A stretch of DNA of 64,000 nt, taken from Myxococcota bacterium (GTDB taxonomy: Bacteria > Myxococcota_A > UBA9160 > UBA4427). The notes beneath the pieces are model-generated. The model was not told the origin of the DNA. It was given only the letters and a program-made list of their open reading frames with translations, and ran no database searches. The position numbers and the translations under genes were made by a program. The stretch spans positions 354 to 64,353 of the forward strand of contig JASMLK010000115.1 in assembly GCA_030748735.1 (NCBI GenBank), read 5' to 3'. Positions 3,271 through 60,258 of this stretch are shown here, one piece after another. Positions within the stretch are counted from its first letter, which is position 1; the number at the start of each line of letters is the position of its first letter.

Positions 3271-3783
3271 ATGTCCCAGTTCAACTACGACGACGTCACG
3301 CAGTACGGACTCGACCAGGACAAGCTCGAGGAGATCCTCGAAAAGCAGATCGAGTGCACGTTCATCTGGGGCCCGAAGGACCACTGGGCCGTCGGCGTGT
3401 TGATGACGTACATCTGGAAGGACGGGAGCTTCTGGGTCAGCGCGACCCGGCAACGCGCGCGGATCGCGGCGATCAAGCGCGACCCGCGCGTGTCGGTCGT
3501 CGTCTCGAGCCACGGCACCGACCTCGGCCCCGCCAAGGGAATTACCGCAAAGGGCCGCGCGATCATCCACGACGACGATGAAACGAAGGCCTGGTTCTAC
3601 CCCGCCTGCGCAGCAGTCAACATCCCCACCCCGGGCAAACTGCAAGACGCATTCGCGCAGATGATGGACACGGAGAAGCGACTCGTGATCGAAGTCGTGC
3701 CCGAGAAGTGGATCACCTTCGACGCCACGAAGATGATGATGGCGTCCATCGAGGCGTGGAAGAAAGAAGGCATCCTCGACTGA
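3271..3783 (+). CDS. Pyridoxamine 5'-phosphate oxidase (PPOX/FMN-binding split barrel) family protein
   Basis: ATG 3271 follows AGGAGCCCCC. The sequence pattern (GPKDHWAVGVLMTYIWKDGSFWVSATRQRARIAAIKRDPRVSVVV) is typical of the PPOX class. Confidence 0.7.
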   Translation: MSQFNYDDVTQYGLDQDKLEEILEKQIECTFIWGPKDHWAVGVLMTYIWKDGSFWVSATRQRARIAAIKRDPRVSVVVSSHGTDLGPAKGITAKGRAIIHDDDETKAWFYPACAAVNIPTPGKLQDAFAQMMDTEKRLVIEVVPEKWITFDATKMMMASIEAWKKEGILD

Positions 3784-4755: not shown

Positions 4756-5195
4756 TGCGAGCCCGCCATGTTGCGCGCGAAAGCGGAGAACAACCCGATC
4801 GTGCGGCCGAACTCGGCGTCGAGCTGACCCCGCAAGATCGGGTGCAAGGTGGCGCGCACCTTGTCCGCCGTGTCGCCGCCGATGTCCTGGCATGCCACGA
4901 GGAGCTTCGATGCCGCTTCGAACGGTGACGCTTCGGCAAGAGCCTCGGCCCACTGCGGCGCCGTTTCACCCGCAAGGATCTCGCGGGCCTCGTCGACCGC
5001 GCCTTGAAGCTCGACACGACGGCCTTCGTTCAAGTCCTCGCTCAGCAGGTGCTTGACGTACTCGAGGGAACCCACGACCAACTCGGCGCTGTAGCGGGGC
5101 CACTCACCGTCGACACTCGGGGCGACGATGTCTCGCAGTGATTCGATGCAAGAATCGAGAATCGTTTCGACGTCGGGAGCAACAGGTAGCGTCAT
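4752..5195 (-). CDS. Hypothetical helical protein, translationally coupled to the downstream phosphotransferase
   Basis: 147-aa ORF. Its stop overlaps the kinase start (ATGA at 4752-4755). Confidence 0.55.
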   Translation of the reverse strand: MTLPVAPDVETILDSCIESLRDIVAPSVDGEWPRYSAELVVGSLEYVKHLLSEDLNEGRRVELQGAVDEAREILAGETAPQWAEALAEASPFEAASKLLVACQDIGGDTADKVRATLHPILRGQLDAEFGRTIGLFSAFARNMAGSQ

Positions 5196-44309: not shown

Positions 44310-44978
44310 ATGGCGGATCGCACGTCGACACCGGAGCGAATACTCGACGCCAGTCGCAGGCTCTTCAACGAGAAGGGCTATGCCGCAACGACGCTCGCGG
44401 AGATCGCAGCGAGCGTGGGAATCGCACCGGGCAACCTGACGTATCACTTCCCGACCAAGCGCGACCTCGTGGCGGAACTCGAAAGGCGCATGCGCGAGAC
44501 CGTACGGGCGGGGCGAGAGCGCTCAGGGCGCGGCGATGTCGCCGACGAGTACGTCGAGCGCGTCTTGCTGTCCATGAACCACGCGTGGGAGAATCGGTTC
44601 TTTCTGCGCGACTACGCCCAGTTCACGAACAACCCCGACGCACTCCGGCGAGACCCCGACATGGCCGCCGATCTCGAGCAACTCCACTCGCTGCTGCGTC
44701 GCATGCAGAAGGATGGCTTGTTCCGTCGCGATCTGGATTTCGATCTACGCGTGCTGGCCCGCTCTCTCTGGATCGTCAGCCGCTACTGGATGGATCACCT
44801 GCGCGAAATGGAAGGCCTCGACCAGGTCACCTGGGCGGACCAGGAGCGCGGTTTCCAACACCACTTCGGCGTACTGCTCCCCTATCTCACCGCGTCGGCA
44901 CGACGCGACCTCGAATCTGCCGTGGTTCGGGTCGCGAGCAAGCTGGCCGTCGAAGAAGAAAGGAACAACCATGATTGA
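44310..44978 (+). CDS. TetR/AcrR family transcriptional regulator
   Basis: N-terminal HTH (ILDASRRLFNEKGYAATTLAEIAASVGIAPGNLTYHFPTKRDL). The stop overlaps the start of the next gene (ATGATTGA). Confidence 0.85.
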   Translation: MADRTSTPERILDASRRLFNEKGYAATTLAEIAASVGIAPGNLTYHFPTKRDLVAELERRMRETVRAGRERSGRGDVADEYVERVLLSMNHAWENRFFLRDYAQFTNNPDALRRDPDMAADLEQLHSLLRRMQKDGLFRRDLDFDLRVLARSLWIVSRYWMDHLREMEGLDQVTWADQERGFQHHFGVLLPYLTASARRDLESAVVRVASKLAVEEERNNHD

Positions 44979-45723
44979 CTTGTTGCTCGGCTGGGCGTCA
45001 CTCGCCGTCTTTGCGGCTGCGATGCGACTGTGGATTGCCAACATCAAACGCGTCGAAATCCCCGAGAATCGCAGCGGCTTCGTTGCGGCCTGGCTCGCTG
45101 CGGTGGGCCTGGGCGTGGTTGCGCTCGCAGGCGAACCCGGCTGGCTCGGCGGCATTCCCGCCAGCCTCGGCGTCTTCGCGTCTTCGTTCGTCCTGTTCAC
45201 CGTCACCATCAGCAAGCAGAAGGTTGGCAGCGACGCGATTCGAGTTGGTGCCACGATTCCAGCGTTCACGGCCACCGATGAACACGGCGAGACGTTCGAC
45301 TCCGCGAGCCTGGCCGGGCATCCGGTGCTCATCAAGTTCTTCCGCGCTCACTGGTGACCCTACTGTGTCGCCGAGTTACGGCGATGGGAAGAACTGAGGC
45401 CCGAGTTCGACGCCCGCGGAGTGCAGATCCTGACGGTCAGCACCGACACGCCCGAAGAACTCGCCAAGGGACACCCGCGGCATCGCATTGGCGCCACGAT
45501 GCTCTCGGATCGAAACCTCGAGGTGACCGACCGCTTCGGCCTGCGCAATGCGGGCATTCACTCGGGGCCGCCCCCGCCGATCGCACCGAAAGCCCTCCCC
45601 GTCCCAACGTCCTTGCTCGTCGACGCAGAGGGAACGGTGCTGTGGATGGACCAGTCCGAGAACTACCAGCGCCGTTCGGAACCCGACCACGTGCTCGGGG
45701 CGCTGCGCGAGCACCTGGGCTGA
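44971..45723 (+). CDS. Membrane-anchored peroxiredoxin-like redoxin (AhpC/TSA-redoxin fold), predicted selenoprotein with Sec encoded by TGA 45355-45357
   Basis: ORFs 44713..45357 and 45421..45723 share one frame and are separated only by TGA. Read-through gives GHPVLIKFFRAHW-U-PYCVAELRRWEELRPEFDARGVQILTVSTD, with the TGA at the first Cys of WCPxC. A hairpin sits 9 nt downstream. ATG 44971 follows GAAAGGAA. Three N-terminal TM helices. Confidence 0.7.
45367..45385 (+). promoter_or_regulatory. Candidate bacterial SECIS hairpin
   Basis: GUCGCCG-AGUUA-CGGCGAU (7 bp including one G.U). The stem starts 9 nt after the UGA. Loop G-U lies within the +17..+21 window. Confidence 0.5.
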
Positions 45724-50876: not shown

Positions 50877-50908
50877 TGGTGGAGCCGGCGCGAATCGAAC
50901 CCGGGTCC
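50877..50908. repeat. Degenerate copy of the ssrA 3' end (distal att-like site)
   Basis: tggtggagccggcgcgaatcgaacccgggtcc versus the ssrA 3' end tggtggaggcggcgggaatcgaacccgcgtcc (29/32 identical). The T-arm is no longer self-complementary, so this is a remnant and not a gene. Confidence 0.5.
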
Positions 50909-50933
50909 AGGAAACGTGCAGGTCGAGGTCGAG

Positions 50934-51862: not shown

Positions 51863-52519
51863 TCAGGGTGACGACCGGTCCGGTAGCGGCAGATCGATCG
51901 CGGAAAGTTCCTCATTGGCGATGGCCTCGGCCTCGTCGTCGGGGATGCCCAGCAGTCGCAATGCGTGTGCGGTGAAAGTGACTTCGGCCTCGGCGGGCAG
52001 CTCACCCTCGAGGCGCCGGCGCATCAACGCCTCGGCTCCGCCGCCGATCATCGTGTAGATGATCTCGAGATCGTCGAAGTGGAAACGTCCGGAGTCGAGT
52101 CCACGCTGGATGTCCCGGCGTCCGTAGACACCCACCGCCAGGCCACCCATCGAGATCAGGTTCCCCACGCGCAAGATGAACCAGCCGAGCGCCGGATCTT
52201 CGACGCAGGCGCGGAGCATGTGCCGCAGGCTCGTAGCAACCACTCGGGCGGCGTCGTCGCGCACGGGTTCGGTGAGCATGTCGAGTGCGCGACCGAGTTC
52301 GGCGAAGGTCTCCTCGATGACCGCCCGCAGGCACGCATCCTTCGAATCGAAGTTGTTGTAGAAGCTGCCCTTCGCGACGTCAGCCGCGTCGGTGATGTCC
52401 TGGATGGTGGTGGCGCCCACCCCCTGCGACGCGAACACCTCGCGGGCGGCGGCCAGCAAGGCGGCCCGGGTTCGAAGGCGTCTTCGCGCGGCTCGGTTGT
52501 CGGTCTTGGGTTCGGCCAT
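51863..52519 (-). CDS. TetR/AcrR family transcriptional regulator
   Basis: HTH LLAAAREVFASQGVGATTIQDITDAADVAKGSFYNNFDSKD. Confidence 0.85.
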   Translation of the reverse strand: MAEPKTDNRAARRRLRTRAALLAAAREVFASQGVGATTIQDITDAADVAKGSFYNNFDSKDACLRAVIEETFAELGRALDMLTEPVRDDAARVVATSLRHMLRACVEDPALGWFILRVGNLISMGGLAVGVYGRRDIQRGLDSGRFHFDDLEIIYTMIGGGAEALMRRRLEGELPAEAEVTFTAHALRLLGIPDDEAEAIANEELSAIDLPLPDRSSP

Positions 52520-52963
52520 GGCCCAGTTGATACCCGGAAATGACTATTTGGTCAACTATGAATTATCGGTCACCTAGATTTTCGGCGGATTTCGCGAAGA
52601 CCCGGCTCGAAACTCCTTCGATAGGGTCGAAGCGGCCGCGGCGATTGGGAAATCGCCTGGCCGGAGCCGTCACCCCAGCAGATGCTGCGGGTTCCCCCGT
52701 CACGATCGACCAGCCGGGAACTCCCGGCCGGCGCCTGTTACCAATGCACGCCCGGGATGCGGTGTGCGAAGACCTTGGCCTCGGGGACACCTCTCCGGTT
52801 CCTGCCTCATCGGCGTGGGCCTTGGCCGCAAGCGAATCGGGGAAGATGCGGACGGCCATGTTGACTGTCGCATGGTCGGTGGGGAGAGTTCCGCGGGCGG
52901 TACGATCTCCCCTACCCAGGTGGTCGCCATGTGCTGGGCTCGAGACCACGGAAGGAGACTGTG

Positions 52964-54112
52964 ATGCCGCAAGTCAGCGAGACGATTCCCGAAGCGTTGA
53001 AGCCGCGCGTCGATGCCGCACTCGCATGGTTCAACGCGTCCGCTGATGCGGCCGAAGACGAGTTCAAGGTGACGGGCATCCTCGACGCAGACGAGGCGCT
53101 GAGTGGGTCAGACGAGCTACGGCTCATCCTGTGCGGCGGGGATCGCTGCGAGCAACGCTCGTTTCGGGTCGGTGGCACCGTAGATGCGTGGGAGATCGAC
53201 TTCGCCGATTCTGCCCTGGCACCGCAGGACGCGAAGCCGCAGGCCGAGCTCGACCCGCCGCCGGGGCCACGCCTTCGTTGGCTCGACGAAAAACTCTCGC
53301 AACACGCCTTCGTCGTCCTGCTCTTCTACCGGGGCTTCTGGTGACCTCCGTGTCGCTCCGAGTTGCGGAGCTACATGCGCGAGGGCGTCGTCCGGAAGAT
53401 CCGCGCCGCAGGTGGCGAGGTCTATGCCGTCACCAGCGAGCCGCAGTATTTGGCCAATCAGGCCCACGAACACTGGGAGCTCGACTTCGAGAACGTCGGT
53501 GACCCCCATCAGGAGATCTCGAGAACCTGCAGTGAGCGCGGTTGGCTGACCCTCTATGCGAACAAGGGCGACCTCGAGTTTCTGCAACGCGGGGCGGACT
53601 GGGAGGTCGAGCATCCGAAGGGCTACTTCCAGCCGGGCGTGCTGGCCCTGACGAACACAGGGCGCGTTCTCTACCGCTGGCGCTCGGTGCCGTCGGCCGA
53701 GAACCTGAGCGGCACACTCGCGCGACCCACGGCTCGGCACGCATGGGGTGCCATCGAGAGATCACTCGCAGCCCGTGACGCCGCCGGAGATGCCGCGCAC
53801 GACGACAACCCCGAGATCGACCAGGCACCGCCGCCGCGAATCGTCTTCGTCGCTGCATTGATCGCGAACGGCTGGTTCGTAGGCGTGAAGTCGTTCGCCT
53901 ACTCGCCCGGGGTGGGATCGGTCCCCTCGCGCTTCGCCAAAGCCGCATCGCGTTGGCTGCTCTTCCTGGCGTTCTGGGCCGCCGCACTGGTCTGCTTGCC
54001 GACCGTGCTCGTCGGGTTGGCCTTTGCCGGCTGGGTTGTATGGATCGTGCGGGACATCCGGCGTGTGCTCGGTGGCCTGGATGTGCAGGAGGAACTCGTC
54101 GCGAATCGGTGA
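52964..54112 (+). CDS. Three-part redoxin protein (unknown N-domain, thioredoxin-fold redoxin domain, C-terminal TM helices), predicted selenoprotein with Sec encoded by TGA 53342-53344
   Basis: ORFs 52931..53344 and 53363..54112 share one frame and are separated only by TGA. Read-through gives HAFVVLLFYRGFW-U-PPCRSELRSYMREGVVRKIRAAGGEVYAVTSE. A hairpin sits at the same offset as in the first case. ATG 52964 follows GGAAGGAGA. Confidence 0.65.
53351..53375 (+). promoter_or_regulatory. Candidate bacterial SECIS hairpin
   Basis: UGU-C-GCUCCG-AGUUG-CGGAGC-U-ACA (6-bp core plus 3 bp across a C/U mismatch). The core starts 10 nt after the UGA. The loop lies at +17..+21. Confidence 0.5.
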
Positions 54113-54202: not shown

Positions 54203-54232
54203 TGGCGGAGGCGGCGGGAATCGAACCCGGGT
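54203..54232. repeat. Degenerate copy of the ssrA 3' end (att-like direct repeat)
   Basis: tggcggaggcggcgggaatcgaacccgggt versus ssrA 59893-59922 tggtggaggcggcgggaatcgaacccgcgt (28/30 identical). No matching 5' acceptor strand lies upstream, so this is not an intact tRNA or tmRNA. Confidence 0.6.
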
Positions 54233-54308
54233 ACGGTTCAATGAAATCAGGGACTTACACCGACAATCGGTGCCTCTCGGGCAGCCTGGCCTGATCACCT
54301 GGATTTGA

Positions 54309-54334
54309 GGTTATATAACCCAACTATTGGGTTA
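54309..54334. promoter_or_regulatory. Overlapping palindromes upstream of the wHTH gene (candidate operator)
   Basis: GGTTATATAACC (perfect 12-nt palindrome) overlaps AACCCAACTATTGGGTT (7-3-7 inverted repeat), about 30 nt upstream of the likely start. Confidence 0.35.
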
Positions 54335-54365
54335 TAGTGCCGACCCCCCGATGAGGTCGGTCAGC

Positions 54366-54698
54366 ATGCTCGAAGGCATCTTCGGAAACGCCAGCGCCGA
54401 GAAAGTCCTGCTCTACCTCGAGCAGTACGAAGAAGGCTACGCGACGGCGATCGCCCGCACCTTCGACGACCTCTCGCTGAACATGGCGCAGCGTCAGCTC
54501 GAGCGATTCGAGCGGGCTGGCGCGCTGGTGAGCTCGCTAAAGGGCCGCACCCGCCTCTACACCTGGAATCCCCGCTATCCGTTTCGGCGCGAGCTGCGCG
54601 CCCTCCTCCGCAAGGCGCTCGACCAGCTGCCCGCGTCCGAGCGGAAGCGCTACTTCACCGAGCGCAGGCGGCCGCGCCGAGCGAGCAAGCCGCTTTGA
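54366..54698 (+). CDS. Winged-helix (ArsR/MarR-like) DNA-binding protein
   Basis: MLEGIFGNASAEKVLLYLEQYEEGYATAIARTFDDLSLNMAQRQLERFERAGALVSSLKGRTRLYTWN. GAGG lies 9 nt before ATG 54366. The ORF-track start at 54327 is a TTG inside the palindrome. Confidence 0.6.
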   Translation: MLEGIFGNASAEKVLLYLEQYEEGYATAIARTFDDLSLNMAQRQLERFERAGALVSSLKGRTRLYTWNPRYPFRRELRALLRKALDQLPASERKRYFTERRRPRRASKPL

Positions 54699-55252
54699 GC
54701 GGGAAGCCTCGGGTCAGCAAGCGCACCTCGCTGGAAGACCTGGCAGCCCTCGTCTGCACCACGCTCGAAGCGCACGGCATCTCGGTCGTCCTCTCCGGTG
54801 GCGCAGTCGTTTCGATCTACTCCGACGCCGAGTACGTCTCGTACGACCTCGACTTCATCCCGACTGGACTCGCCCGGAAGGTCGACACCGCGATGGAGTC
54901 GCTTGGCTTCGAGAAGACCCAGCGACATTGGACACACCCGAAGAGCCGCTACTGGGTCGAGTTCCCGCCCGGCCCCGTGGCGATCGGAGATGAGACGATT
55001 CGCGAATTCGCGGAGCGCGAGACGCGGATGGGAACGCTGCGGCTGCTGGCTCCGACCGAGTGCGTCATGGACCGGCTTGCCTGGTACTTCCACGATGCGG
55101 ACACGCAGTGCCTCCAACAGGCGATCCAGGTCGCGACGCAGCATCCCGTCGATCTGAAGCGGATCGCGAAGTGGGCGCGTGGTGAGCGGCCTCATGGTGA
55201 GGAGCGCTACCGGGAGTTCGAGCGGCGGCTAGCCCAGGACTCCAGCGCATAG
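54695..55252 (+). CDS. Nucleotidyltransferase-fold protein (AbiEii-like GG...DxD motif), possible toxin partner of the wHTH protein
   Basis: The TTG start overlaps the upstream stop (TTGA). HGISVVLSGGAVVSIYSDAEYVSYDLDFIP resembles the G-G/S...D-x-D minimal NTase motif. Family assignment is tentative. Confidence 0.45.
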   Translation: MSGKPRVSKRTSLEDLAALVCTTLEAHGISVVLSGGAVVSIYSDAEYVSYDLDFIPTGLARKVDTAMESLGFEKTQRHWTHPKSRYWVEFPPGPVAIGDETIREFAERETRMGTLRLLAPTECVMDRLAWYFHDADTQCLQQAIQVATQHPVDLKRIAKWARGERPHGEERYREFERRLAQDSSA

Positions 55253-56108: not shown

Positions 56109-56935
56109 GCAGCGCGCAACCCGACACCCGAGCCCCCTGCACGGAGCTGCTCCTCGTCGCCCTGGCGGCGGGCCTCGCCATGGCCATCCTGTTCCTCGTC
56201 GGCAGCGTTGGCTGGGAAGGTCGTGAGGACACCTGCCTCGTCGGCGGCCAGTGCTTCTGCGAGCGCGATCACGGAGGACTCGTCCGGCAACCCGCCAACA
56301 CCGCCTCGAACCTCGGCTTCGTGATCGCCGGTCTGCTCGTCGCCTGGAGCCTGGGGCGGGAGCGCATGCGCGGACGCCTCCCCCGACCGGGCAACCCGAT
56401 GACCGAGACCCGCTTCTACCCCGGCTTCTACGCCCTGGCGGTCGCGCTGCTCGGACCCGGGAGCATGGCGCTCCACGCCTCCCTCCTCTGGTGGGGCAGC
56501 GTGCTCGACCTCGTCTCCATGAACGTCTTCATCGGCTTCGTGTTCAGCTACGCCCTGGTCCGCTGGCGCGGCCTCGGCGTCGGCGCCTTCCTGGCCAGCT
56601 TCCTGCTCCTGAACGCCGTGCTCCTCGCCATCAAGCTGATCCACGGCCACGGCTCCGCCGCCTTCGGGGTGACGGCCGTCGTCTCCCTCGCCATCGAGCT
56701 TCGCATCCGGCGAGAGGGTCGGGTGACCGGCGACGGCCGCTACCTGGCCGCGGCCGCGATCACCTTCGTCGTGGCCTTCGTCGTCTGGCTCGGCAGCGAC
56801 AACGACGGCTGGCTGTGCGATCCGGACTCCTGGCTCCAGGGGCACGCGTTCTGGCACCTGGGCTGCGCCGGATCGACGGCCTTCCTCTACCTCTACATGC
56901 GTTCCCAGCACGACGCGGGAGGCGAGTCGGCATGA
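56105..56935 (+). CDS. Ceramidase-domain-like polytopic membrane protein
   Basis: GTG 56105 lies in the frame of ORF 55565..56935. CFCERDHGGLVRQPANTASNLGFVIAGLLV and the C-terminal GHAFWHLGCAG resemble the alkaline ceramidase family (E-P-x-N-T-x-S-N ... H-x-x-W-H). About 7 TM helices. Confidence 0.6.
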   Translation: MSSAQPDTRAPCTELLLVALAAGLAMAILFLVGSVGWEGREDTCLVGGQCFCERDHGGLVRQPANTASNLGFVIAGLLVAWSLGRERMRGRLPRPGNPMTETRFYPGFYALAVALLGPGSMALHASLLWWGSVLDLVSMNVFIGFVFSYALVRWRGLGVGAFLASFLLLNAVLLAIKLIHGHGSAAFGVTAVVSLAIELRIRREGRVTGDGRYLAAAAITFVVAFVVWLGSDNDGWLCDPDSWLQGHAFWHLGCAGSTAFLYLYMRSQHDAGGESA

Positions 56936-59517
56936 GCCACGGCGCATCGGGACCCCGTATCGGCCTCGCGTTCCGCTTCCACGCGAACTTCTACCACTCC
57001 TATCGCGGAGACACGCCGGACGAGCTCGGCTTCGGCATGGACATGCGCATCATCCGGCGGATCCTCGAGGTGCTCGACGCCTGGAACGACCGGGGCCTGC
57101 CGGTCCGCGCAACCTGGGACGTCGACAACCATTACTCCCTCGAGAAGATCATCCCCGAGCACTGCCCCGACATCCTCGAGGCCTGGCAGCGGCGCGTGGC
57201 CGACGGCCGGGACGAGTTCGAGCTCATGTCGTACAACAACGGCCTGGCCAACGCGGCCACCGCCGCGGAGTTCGACGCGAGCATCGAGCGGGCCCTGCGC
57301 AACCCCGAGGGCTCGGGGTTGGAGGACCTGTTCGCGTCCCACGCGCGGATCGTGCGGCCCCAGGAGATGATGTACACGCCGCGCCACCTGGATCTGTATC
57401 CCCGGCTCGGCATCGACACGATCAGCCTCTTCTACAGCGCGGTTCCCTTCAACGCCTTCAGCAACTTCGTTGCGCCCCTGCCCCTGGAGCAGCGCTACAA
57501 CCCGCTGATCCTGTGGCACCCCGACGCGGAGGGGACGATGTCCCTCCTCCCCGCCTACAACCACGGCGACATCGCCGACCAGCTCTCCTTGCGCCGCTGG
57601 CTCGAGCGCATGCGCCGCGCCCAGCTCGCCCTGTCCGAGCCACGGGACCTGCTGCTGCTCATCGACGCCGACGCCGACGACGAGTTCTGGTACGGCTACG
57701 GCGCCCCCGTCCTGCCCCGCCTGATCGCCATCGCCGGGGGCCTCGACGGCCTGCTCGCGAGCGTCGCGGACCTCGACTTCGTGGACTTCACGACCCCCGG
57801 CGCCTACCTCGCCGACCACCCGCCGGTGGACCGCATCCGGATCGACCACGATACCGCCGACGGCTCCTACGACGGGTTCGCGAGCTGGGCGGAGAAGTGG
57901 TCGAGTCATCAGCTCTGGACCGGGATCGAGCGGGCTCGCCTGCTCGAGATGCAGGCGCGACGGCTCCTGTCCGAGATGCCAACCGGACCCGATCGTGAGG
58001 CCCTCGAGCAGAAGCTCGCGCGGAGCTTCGAGTCGCGGCTGCTCTCGCTCTCCACCACGCACTTCGGGCTGACCTCGCCCGTCGTGAACAAGAGGCGGCT
58101 GCGCACGGCGACCGGGCTCGTCGCCCGCGCGGTGGTCGAGGCCGAGCAGGCGTTCCTCGGGGCCGCCGCCGGCATCACCGGCGCGGAGCGACCCGCTGGC
58201 GAATCGCGGATCCCGCTCCAACTCGTCGACTTCCCCCGCGGCGTCGACACGGATGCGGTTCGCTACGAGCCCCGCCCGTCGCGGGCGTGGGTCCGCATTC
58301 CCGTCGACACAGCGGTGGCGGAGGCGCGGGCGGTCGAGGTGGTGGACGCCGCGGGAATGCCCCACGCGGCCGTCCTGCGGCCCCGCGCCGAAGGGTCCGG
58401 AGAACTCTCCCTGGTCGCCGCCCTCGCGGCGTGCGAGCGGCGAGACCTGACGGTCTCCCTCGACGGATCGCCGGGCGCCACCGTGCCGCTGCCCGGTGAG
58501 CCGGTTCGCACCGATCCCACGAGCCTCGACAACGGGCTGCTGCGCCTGCGCTTCGACGCCGAAGGACGCTGGGTCGGGCTCGAAGGGCCGGGCGGCGAGC
58601 TCGGCGACGGCCGGTCTCCGTTGGTGGGATCGGCGGTCCGGTATCGGCGCCAGCTCTGCGAAGCCGGGCCGTGGAGCGTCGTGAAGAACGACGTCGTGGG
58701 TGGGGGACTCCTGGGCGCGGTCCGGGTCGAGACCGCGATTCCCCTGCCGAAGGGCGCGGGAGCGGTCCGGGTCCAGAGAGAGTTCACCCTGGTGTCGGGG
58801 CTCCCGCATCTGTACTGCGAGACCTGGGTCAGCTATCCCGAGACCGAGTCGAAGAAGTACGACCGCGCCCGGGCCCGCGCCCTCGAGCAGGCCTACGACG
58901 GCCACTGGCGCGAGGCCATGCCCTGCGAGTTGCGCCCCGCCCTGTTCGGTCGCCCCGACCGGCCCCTCCGCATCTGGAAGCACAATCACCTCGGCCACGT
59001 CGGCCACTACGACCTCGACCACGGGAACCACACCGGGCGCCACGAGGTCGACACCCTCAACAACCACGTCACCTGCGGCTGGGTCGCCGCGAGCGACCGC
59101 GAGCGGGGGCTCCTGGTCGCCCAGACCAGCTCCGCGACCGCGGGCATGGCCTTTTGCCCGATCCGTCTGCGCGAAACGGAATCCGGAACGCGCCTGTTCC
59201 TGAACCCCTTCGGCGCCTACCACGGCCGCCAGCTGCCCTACCCCACCCGCTACAGCGGCGTCGGCTTGCTGGCCGCCTGGCTCGGCGCGCCGACCCTCGA
59301 CCCCCAGGCCCCCTCCTTCAACGGGAATCAGCAGCACCTCTCGTTGATGCTCGCTCCCTATGCGGGTGACCGTCCGCCGCAGGCGCTGTGCGACGCGGCC
59401 ATGGCCTTCCACTACCCCTACGCCGTCGTCTCCGACGCCCCGAAGATCGCCACGCCGTCGACGCGCCGCTGGCACCACCCGGGGGTCGAGCACGACGAGC
59501 AGGAGACTGCCCGATGA
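56932..59517 (+). CDS. Large (861 aa) glycoside-hydrolase-like protein (GH38/GH57-type N-terminal barrel plus GH38-like C-terminal beta-domains)
   Basis: ATG 56932 overlaps the upstream stop (ATGA). N-terminus IGLAFRFHANFYHSYRGD... The C-terminal stretches NGLLRLRFDAEGRWVGLEG and GWVAASDRERGLLVAQ...RLFLNPFG resemble the layout of alpha-mannosidase C-terminal domains. Assignment is by pattern only. Confidence 0.55.
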   Translation: MSHGASGPRIGLAFRFHANFYHSYRGDTPDELGFGMDMRIIRRILEVLDAWNDRGLPVRATWDVDNHYSLEKIIPEHCPDILEAWQRRVADGRDEFELMSYNNGLANAATAAEFDASIERALRNPEGSGLEDLFASHARIVRPQEMMYTPRHLDLYPRLGIDTISLFYSAVPFNAFSNFVAPLPLEQRYNPLILWHPDAEGTMSLLPAYNHGDIADQLSLRRWLERMRRAQLALSEPRDLLLLIDADADDEFWYGYGAPVLPRLIAIAGGLDGLLASVADLDFVDFTTPGAYLADHPPVDRIRIDHDTADGSYDGFASWAEKWSSHQLWTGIERARLLEMQARRLLSEMPTGPDREALEQKLARSFESRLLSLSTTHFGLTSPVVNKRRLRTATGLVARAVVEAEQAFLGAAAGITGAERPAGESRIPLQLVDFPRGVDTDAVRYEPRPSRAWVRIPVDTAVAEARAVEVVDAAGMPHAAVLRPRAEGSGELSLVAALAACERRDLTVSLDGSPGATVPLPGEPVRTDPTSLDNGLLRLRFDAEGRWVGLEGPGGELGDGRSPLVGSAVRYRRQLCEAGPWSVVKNDVVGGGLLGAVRVETAIPLPKGAGAVRVQREFTLVSGLPHLYCETWVSYPETESKKYDRARARALEQAYDGHWREAMPCELRPALFGRPDRPLRIWKHNHLGHVGHYDLDHGNHTGRHEVDTLNNHVTCGWVAASDRERGLLVAQTSSATAGMAFCPIRLRETESGTRLFLNPFGAYHGRQLPYPTRYSGVGLLAAWLGAPTLDPQAPSFNGNQQHLSLMLAPYAGDRPPQALCDAAMAFHYPYAVVSDAPKIATPSTRRWHHPGVEHDEQETAR

Positions 59518-59892: not shown

Positions 59893-60258
59893 TGGTGGAG
59901 GCGGCGGGAATCGAACCCGCGTCCGCATGGCGTCCAGAGAACGCGTCTACGTGTGTAGTCCTTGCTCGATTTCGGAAGCACCGGCCGCAAGGACGGAGCA
60001 AGTACTCCCTAGCTACACGTGGATCTCACTTCCGGTTACGGTCTAGCAGCGATCGGAAGCCAGTCTCCTGATGACTCTCGCGACCCGCTAGGAGACGTCA
60101 CGGACGAGAGCCCGCTTACCTAATTTCTGTTAGGCAGCGAGAGCGTAGTTTTCGTCGGCAGATAAAAAGCTACCAACTGTGATGCTTCTTTAACGACGAA
60201 CATCAAAGTCGACACGCAGCGCTCACCTTCGACCACCCGTCGAAGCCAAGTCGCCCCC
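59893..60258 (-). ncRNA. ssrA: tmRNA (transfer-messenger RNA)
   Basis: Reverse strand: 5' GGGGGCGACTTGGCTTCGACGGG ... 3' GGACGCGGGTTCGATTCCCGCCGCCTCCACCA. Acceptor stem has the G3.U pair. The tag reading frame GCC GAC GAA AAC TAC GCT CTC GCT GCC TAA gives ADENYALAA (60130..60159). Confidence 0.92.

Follow-up and report, generated by a model that had tools for sequence, protein, structure and literature searches.

A gene at positions 52964-54112 of a 64,000-nucleotide stretch of a Myxococcota bacterium genome (assembly GCA_030748735.1, contig JASMLK010000115.1; this whole stretch is referred to as the window) very probably encodes a single selenoprotein of 382 residues, in which selenocysteine (Sec) is specified by an in-frame UGA. 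The predicted product has three parts: an N-terminal domain with two invariant cysteines, a peroxiredoxin (Prx)-like domain with a U-P-P-C active site, and a hydrophobic C-terminal region. It can be assigned to the published 'Prx-like 1' selenoprotein family, and is not a new selenoprotein.

Two open reading frames (ORFs), 52931..53344 and 53363..54112, share one frame, and the sole interruption between them is the TGA at 53342-53344. Read-through from the ATG at 52964 gives 382 codons, with ...LLFYRGFW-[TGA]-PPCRSELRSY... around the site. The Pfam AhpC-TSA model (PF00578) matches residues 115-187 across this TGA (E 6.6e-9, 36.2 bits against a cut-off of 26). The structure was modelled with AlphaFold2 (AF2) on the Cys homologue P0121, which is 49% identical to the window protein (mean predicted local distance difference test score 85, predicted TM-score 0.79). 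The model has an N-terminal domain (four strands and a helix at 10-27), which a disordered linker separates from a thioredoxin/Prx fold; three C-terminal helices follow, and Foldseek relates the model to PrxQ/BCP, AhpC and ResA at E ~1e-5. The original prediction, made from the letters of this DNA, was of one frame split by TGA alone, with the UGA at a C-x-x-C position in a W-[C/U]-P-x-C redoxin fold between an N-terminal region and C-terminal hydrophobic helices. The undivided frame is there in the sequence, the fold is recovered by both Pfam and Foldseek, and the three parts are conserved as one protein. Ordinary stops in the window are most often TGA, which ends 27 of 44 likely genes, this one included; therefore the genetic code is not reassigned.

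A scan with one genome per species yielded 80 related loci, from marine Gammaproteobacteria (the isolate HTCC2080, Luminiphilus, Halieaceae and other Pseudomonadales), Myxococcota, Acidobacteriota and others. The start M-P-x-V-S-E-T-I-P and a length of 371-398 residues are common to 76 of them. TGA occupies the Sec codon in 78 loci, or 78 of the 79 that are informative; locus L074 has TGT (Cys), and contig L013 does not include the site. The consensus around the site is ...FYRGFW-[TGA]-PPCR.ELR.Y..., and the UGA aligns with Cys in full-length homologues. The N-terminal domain lies in frame 5' of the TGA and is conserved in every locus that holds the region, and the frame across the TGA is always kept. 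Where the amino acid is invariant, on either side of the UGA, synonymous codons vary freely (upstream, for example, 2.2 bits at R103 and 2.3 bits at L12). It follows that each half is translated and subject to purifying selection.

The UGA is followed by a hairpin, GCUCCG/AGUUG/CGGAGC, at 53355-53371. Its loop (53361-65) lies at +17..+21 after the UGA, in agreement with the core and offset originally described. The upper stem pairs 53355-60 with 53366-71, and beyond a 1x1 mismatch (53354/53372) a lower stem pairs 53351-53 with 53373-75; the local folding energy is -11.8 kcal/mol. The alignment of 78 sequences (73 distinct) is ungapped. Across the 6-bp upper and 3-bp lower stem 94.4% of 657 cells are paired, compared with 22-56% in controls that shift the partner column by 1-3 positions. 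Changes on both sides of a pair occur in 27 cells, against 5.7 +/- 3.9 in shuffles, and 27 is reached in 0 of 500 shuffles. Pair 17-27 is never unpaired in the distinct sequences (CG 57, UA 8, GC 4, UG 3, AU 1), and pair 16-28 appears as UA 33, CG 13, UG 4 and GC 1. The bases of these two pairs fall in codons 132 and 136, and the encoded residues shift in step (S..S, R..G, L..G, F..S, H..G, A..R). The pairing of their codons makes residues 132 and 136 co-vary, and judging from the alignment the changes track base pairing, not amino-acid chemistry.

Synonymous variation is frozen in the stem and loop, where Arg131 is CGC in 75/75 and Glu133 is GAG in 75/75 sequences, and Leu134 is either UUA or UUG. 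Codon entropy for invariant residues elsewhere in the gene is 1.4-2.5 bits for Arg, 0.7-1.0 for Glu and 1.7-2.4 for Leu. The published model of the bacterial selenocysteine insertion sequence (bSECIS; PMC13188914) has a loop of 3-9 nt, an upper stem of 4-16 bp, a G in the first two loop positions, a UGA-to-loop distance of 16-37 nt and a folding energy of -7.5 kcal/mol or lower. The hairpin agrees with it on every count, with a 5-nt loop in which position 2 is G and the next base U, an upper stem of 6 bp, a UGA-to-loop distance of 16 nt and the folding energy given above. Rfam returns no SECIS family, either over the whole window at gathering thresholds or over 50.5-54.5 kb at E <= 1; the only matches in both searches are tmRNA (transfer-messenger RNA) and tmRNA fragments. 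From its covariation and frozen codons the hairpin is predicted to be a functional RNA, a bacterial SECIS element. The locus offers an unusually clean natural case of such an element constraining protein sequence.

Cys forms of the protein were found with the L074 product as query. Among the best 120 matches examined, 12 are full length (387-401 residues). Besides the L074 product itself, 10 of the other 11 carry W-C-P-P-C and the same three-part architecture; one full-length Cys homologue, from Saprospiraceae, is named 'redoxin domain-containing protein'. The exception among the 11 is P0122 (395 residues), the nearest relative of the L074 Cys form, which is scrambled around the active site: it reads ...HATAASGDRPVAASCAAMRERSPRVARAG... 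instead of ...HAFVVLLFYRGFWCPPCR..., a pattern resembling a copy in decay or a local pair of frameshifts. The DNA of the Cys forms L081 and L083 is without the hairpin, and that of L074 has one broken pair; L074 looks like the most recent Sec-to-Cys convert, with a hairpin starting to decay. Most Cys forms have E-L-L in place of E-L-R, which fits release from an RNA constraint. A neighbour-joining tree places the Cys forms in one clade, apart from a separate recent L074/P0122 branch nested among the Sec forms. The distribution of Cys and Sec forms, proposed for examination in the original prediction, is one in which Sec is the dominant state of the family.

The same data bear on the idea that the gene is a pseudogene, that is, a Cys-type redoxin gene recently hit by a TGT/TGC to TGA mutation, or the product of a sequencing error. 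The TGA is a single substitution from TGT or TGC, and TGT is what L074 has. Such an accident is nevertheless extremely improbable, as the same TGA stands in 78 independent loci from different phyla, the sequence on either side of it is under strong purifying selection, and the hairpin is conserved and covarying. The change even appears to have run in reverse, given that the Cys form L074 is nested in the Sec clade and decay of its hairpin has begun. Recent inactivation of a Cys gene had been named beforehand as an outcome that would undo the prediction; it is effectively excluded here, because the hairpin is conserved.

Protein databases divide the selenoprotein in two. With the read-through protein as query (U written as C), 692 clusters were retrieved; the best 120, which were examined, are all ~245 residues in length and confined to the region beyond the UGA, indicating that in many genomes the gene callers break off at this same point. 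Taking the cluster representatives listed in two protein searches together, ~228 of 240 are such ~245-residue pieces, and where named they are 'hypothetical protein'. The N-terminal pieces are listed as separate proteins of 120-133 residues: the N-terminal domain as query against 1.84 billion cluster representatives gave 126 matches, almost all of them fragments of this size ending ...FYRG[FLR]W, and just one a full-length Cys representative.

These annotations correspond to a reading of the locus as two genes, with a 126-residue N-terminal protein ending at the TGA and a separate downstream protein of ~245 residues. The Sec forms in the databases do take this shape (245-250-residue 'hypothetical proteins' and 120-133-residue N-fragments ending ...FYRGFW), and a GGAG stands 4 nt before an ATG at 53375. 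However, that GGAG forms the 3' arm of the SECIS stem, with which it varies, and the supposed start codon differs among loci (ATG, GTN, ATA, GCG, CTT, TCT, GAA, CGG and others). The split would also sever the thioredoxin fold, leaving strand beta-1 and the nucleophile on one protein and the rest of the CxxC helix on the other, whereas the frame is always kept across the TGA and the Cys homologues are single chains. Separate translation of the halves, a further possibility raised at the outset, finds no conserved start codon for a downstream protein, and two proteins are regarded as very improbable here.

The N-terminal domain of the selenoprotein has no match in Pfam or NCBIfam, and none in the Protein Data Bank (PDB) by sequence profile search. 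Structure prediction, suggested for this region at the outset, gives one helix and four strands. A Foldseek search of the PDB with a separate model of the domain gives a best E of 1.8, with cystatin/monellin-like topology only, which is not significant. Its two cysteines, C57 and C62, are spaced as Cx4C in most members and as Cx8C in the Cys clade. Matches by phmmer to fn3/TIG repeat proteins (E 1e-6 to 3e-5) were set aside, since the model does not support them. In these matches several stretches of P0329 (1839 residues) and P0346 (1454 residues) align with residues ~18-95 of the domain, at E 1e-6 and 3e-5, and the AF2 model of the domain, one helix and a 4-stranded sheet, is unlike fn3.

The C-terminal region likewise matches no Pfam or NCBIfam family. 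Hydropathy indicates a marginal hydrophobic helix at 293-311 and a strong 32-residue stretch at 331-362, broken at the invariant L345-P346; a basic tail, RDIRR, follows. Helices are placed at 297-307, 324-349 and 352-377 in the P0121 model, and conserved residues include F295, A301, G303, W304, F305, L345 and P346. There is no N-terminal hydrophobic segment, the maximum 19-residue hydropathy in residues 1-120 being 0.77. With a C-terminal anchor and no such segment the protein is therefore predicted to face the cytoplasm; the missing signal peptide and the basic C-terminal tail make it most likely that the catalytic domains lie on the cytoplasmic face of the inner membrane. Both terminal regions had at first been described as belonging to families that could not be named, which holds for the searches given here.

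A second gene of this kind lies upstream in the window (the first Sec gene in Table 1). It combines N-terminal hydrophobic helices with a complete AhpC-TSA domain (E 3.7e-26, U written as C). Its hairpin, UCGCCG/AGUUA/CGGCGA, is found at the same offset from the TGA as that of the 382-residue protein, an equality already remarked on in the original prediction and confirmed here. The 11-mer CCGAGTTRCGG has 2 exact copies in the window, and in each case an in-frame TGA at a CxxC position has its T 16 nt before the first base of the copy; by our own estimate ~0.06 exact matches would be expected by chance in 128 kb. Sequences of the first gene's family (…LIKFFRAHWUPYCVGELRR…) are also present in the Global Ocean Sampling (GOS) 'Prx-like 1' dataset (PMC2398784).

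The proposed recoding scheme follows the established bacterial SelB/SECIS pathway. On reaching the UGA at 53342-44 the ribosome would encounter a stem-loop 10 nt downstream, which would recruit SelB with Sec-tRNA(Sec) and GTP; Sec would be inserted, and translation would run on to the ordinary TGA stop at 54110. Sec would then be the exposed N-terminal position of the redox pair, with C130 at the position of the Prx peroxidatic Cys. Fold and motif together suggest that the selenolate could attack a disulfide, sulfenate or hydroperoxide substrate and that C130 could resolve the adduct to a selenenylsulfide. This may be re-reduced by a thioredoxin or glutaredoxin system, possibly via the N-domain Cys pair.

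Several points weigh against the selenoprotein reading or parts of it. No selA, selB, selD or tRNA-Sec gene is present within the 64-kb window, and Sec insertion is a prediction for every member of the family. The chemistry, the cytoplasmic orientation and any part played by the N-domain Cys pair are inferred. In 22 of the 73 distinct sequences, pair 16-28 of the hairpin is mismatched (G.G or G.A); the stem tolerates an internal 1x1 mismatch. Gene neighbourhoods are not conserved and offer no hint of function, the commonest neighbour cluster occurring in only 11 of 80 loci, and there is no operon partner.

That the Sec machinery is not seen in the window and that no Rfam family matches the hairpin would also suit read-through of another kind, in which near-cognate Trp or Cys is inserted or a local recoding signal acts, and the hairpin is only stimulating. 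This, too, is very unlikely. The UGA stands at the nucleophilic Cys of a CxxC motif for which Cys homologues exist, a position at which Sec and Cys exchange in many families. The loop sequence and spacing of the hairpin fit the SelB-type bSECIS model, and the second gene in the window has the same loop and spacing. Furthermore, the family is one of published predicted selenoproteins, and an orthologue (L033) is carried by HTCC2080, a strain included in a selenoproteome table of Sec-utilising bacteria (PMC5029168).

Table 1. Coordinates of the predicted selenoprotein gene, its parts and other features of the window
Feature	Position	Strand	Basis or detail
Shine-Dalgarno-like AAGGAG	52952..52957	+	6 nt 5' of ATG 52964; read directly from the sequence
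Complete predicted selenoprotein coding sequence, 382 codons	52964..54112	+	Sec = codon 127; ordinary TGA terminator 54110-54112
N-terminal domain, residues 1-97	52964..53254	+	One helix and a 4-stranded antiparallel sheet; AF2 models and conservation
Invariant C57 and C62	53132-34; 53147-49	+	Flanking a beta-hairpin turn in the N-terminal domain
Prx-like/thioredoxin-fold domain, ~residues 98-265	53255..53758	+	Active site W-U127-P-P-C130; Pfam, Foldseek
Predicted Sec-encoding UGA, codon 127	53342..53344	+	TGA in 78 loci, TGT in 1; Cys in full-length homologues
Predicted bacterial SECIS element	53351..53375	+	Pairing, covariation, frozen codons, -11.8 kcal/mol
C-terminal membrane region, residues 288-362	53825..54049	+	Hydropathy; AF2 model of Cys homologue
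First Sec gene (predicted)	44968-45723	+	TGA 45355-45357; hairpin 45368-45384; motif HW-U-PYC (FRAHW-U-PYC)
tmRNA gene (ssrA)	59893-60258	-	
tmRNA 3'-end copy, ~33 nt	54203-54235	-	30/33 identical
tmRNA 3'-end copy, ~33 nt	50877-50909	-	29/32 identical

In the window, the selenoprotein gene is preceded, 445 bp upstream, by a divergent gene for a TetR-family regulator (TetR_N and TetR_C_40; 51863-52519, minus strand). A divergent TetR-like gene lies upstream in 11 of 80 related loci; this association is weak, and may or may not reflect regulation. The two tmRNA 3'-end copies, which lie downstream of the tmRNA gene, are the pattern left by ssrA-integrating islands, and no integrase is seen in 50.9-59.9 kb. 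An ssrA-integrated island containing the gene was considered, and comparison with locus L002 gives a more complex picture. There the selenoprotein gene stands alone between a tmRNA 3'-end copy (3338-3369) and an intact tmRNA (4808-5174), the latter beginning 70 nt after the stop of the gene. Between the window and L001, L002, L004 and L007 the DNA similarity is 87-91% and confined to the selenoprotein gene. This suggests that the gene moves as a very small cassette at an ssrA hot spot.

Just past the tmRNA 3' remnant are two overlapping small ORFs (123 and 185 residues; 54327-55252, plus strand) with no Pfam match, whose position suggests island cargo. Further along, an ORF of ~845 residues (56980-59517, plus strand), with no Pfam match at E <= 0.001, has a ceramidase-family membrane protein (56150-56935) on one side and the tmRNA gene on the other.

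A more specific picture of the protein can be offered tentatively, as a possibility that we consider rather unlikely in its entirety. It would form a distinct, unnamed selenoprotein subfamily, anchored C-terminally and facing the cytoplasm, in which the two-Cys N-terminal domain of unclassified fold relays electrons to the U-P-P-C site or shares a metal site with it. The substrate might be membrane-associated, such as lipid hydroperoxides, which would make the protein a bacterial counterpart of GPx4, and the ssrA integration hot spot may be where the gene spreads, as a single-gene cassette.

The family itself has been published. In the GOS selenoproteome paper (2008, Zhang & Gladyshev, PMC2398784), the '#Prx-like 1' section of Dataset S1 contains reads such as ...LLFYRGFWUPPCRSELRSYV...GDPHQEI...EHPKGYFQPGV.... 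The N-terminal domain (…LGLILCDGEICAREQ…, …LILCDGEIC…) is present in some of them and the membrane tail in some, and near-identical sequences to the window protein are filed there from ocean metagenomes. A 2026 review (PMC13188914) gives 'Prx-like thiol:disulfide oxidoreductase (PF00578, UxxC)' among its high-confidence predictions. The window protein has the two features that define 'Prx-like 1', a PF00578 domain and U-P-P-C (UxxC with Sec first). The original prediction also supposed that the architecture might be undescribed. This stands for the three-part layout, which is unremarked in PMC2398784, and does not extend to the protein family, which is listed there with N-terminal domain and tail included. 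The fusions listed in that paper (Unknown_1, Unknown_2, Unknown_3 and Secretin_N; domain-fusion section, Figure S1) do not match the N-terminal domain or the tail.

No NCBIfam model exists for the family. With the family published and no model covering the N-terminal domain or tail, the selenoprotein is therefore known, its architecture unremarked and its public annotation wrong. With a family model that permits Sec, annotations would be put right across many marine genomes, among them those of the OM60/NOR5 clade, other Pseudomonadales and Myxococcota. The locus is not a new selenoprotein family and opens no long-standing question; the uncharacterised N-terminal domain and membrane anchor make the enzyme of biochemical interest.

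In comparison with 'Prx-like 1', the window protein shares PF00578 and UxxC with Sec first, together with FYRGFW-U-PPCRSELRSY, GDPHQEI and EHPKGYF. It differs in that 'Prx-like 1' brings together 225 GOS sequences, mostly single-domain, in a broad catch-all, and the three-part architecture is neither described in PMC2398784 nor among its listed fusions. Over the redox domain (residues 111-246) there is a weak match to NCBIfam NF040769 (SelL-related redox protein); membership is ruled out at 20.1 bits against a cut-off of 120.

The likeness to AhpC and PrxQ/BCP lies in the overall fold (target-normalised TM-score 0.57-0.64, Foldseek E ~1e-5). HMMER aligns FYRGFW-U-PP-C with FYPADFSFV-C of AhpC 1we0; U127 therefore falls at the Ser/Thr of T/SxxC, the peroxidatic Cys is matched by C130, and the GDP.Q.ISR motif is common to both. 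In contrast to peroxiredoxins, however, the PxxxTxxC signature is absent, the window protein having RxxxUxxC with R123 on the Pro. A further difference is the invariant Q223-P224-G225 loop before strand 226-232, which may correspond to a thioredoxin-type cis-Pro in our reading. The catalytic-Arg region reads H-P-K/N/S-G-x-F/Y-Q-P-G, without an invariant Arg in the family, and the HMMER alignment ends before it. The redox domain is, as far as these alignments indicate, a Prx scaffold with a thioredoxin-type UxxC pair, the hallmark of Prx-like selenoproteins.

TlpA, ResA and CcmG are periplasmic thioredoxin-like reductases with a signal or anchor at the N-terminus. Unlike these, the window protein is anchored C-terminally, has an extra N-terminal domain and is without an N-terminal hydrophobic segment; its scores against the NCBIfam ResA and DsbE models (19.3 bits vs a cut-off of 170, and 11.4 vs 123) are below membership. 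What it shares with them is a W-[C/U]-P-x-C site on an AhpC/TSA-Redoxin type fold and attachment to the membrane. ResA has the highest target-normalised TM-score (0.66) among the top 50 Foldseek matches, and the PDB 'thioredoxin family protein' 3kcm has WCPPCR in common with the Cys form of the motif.

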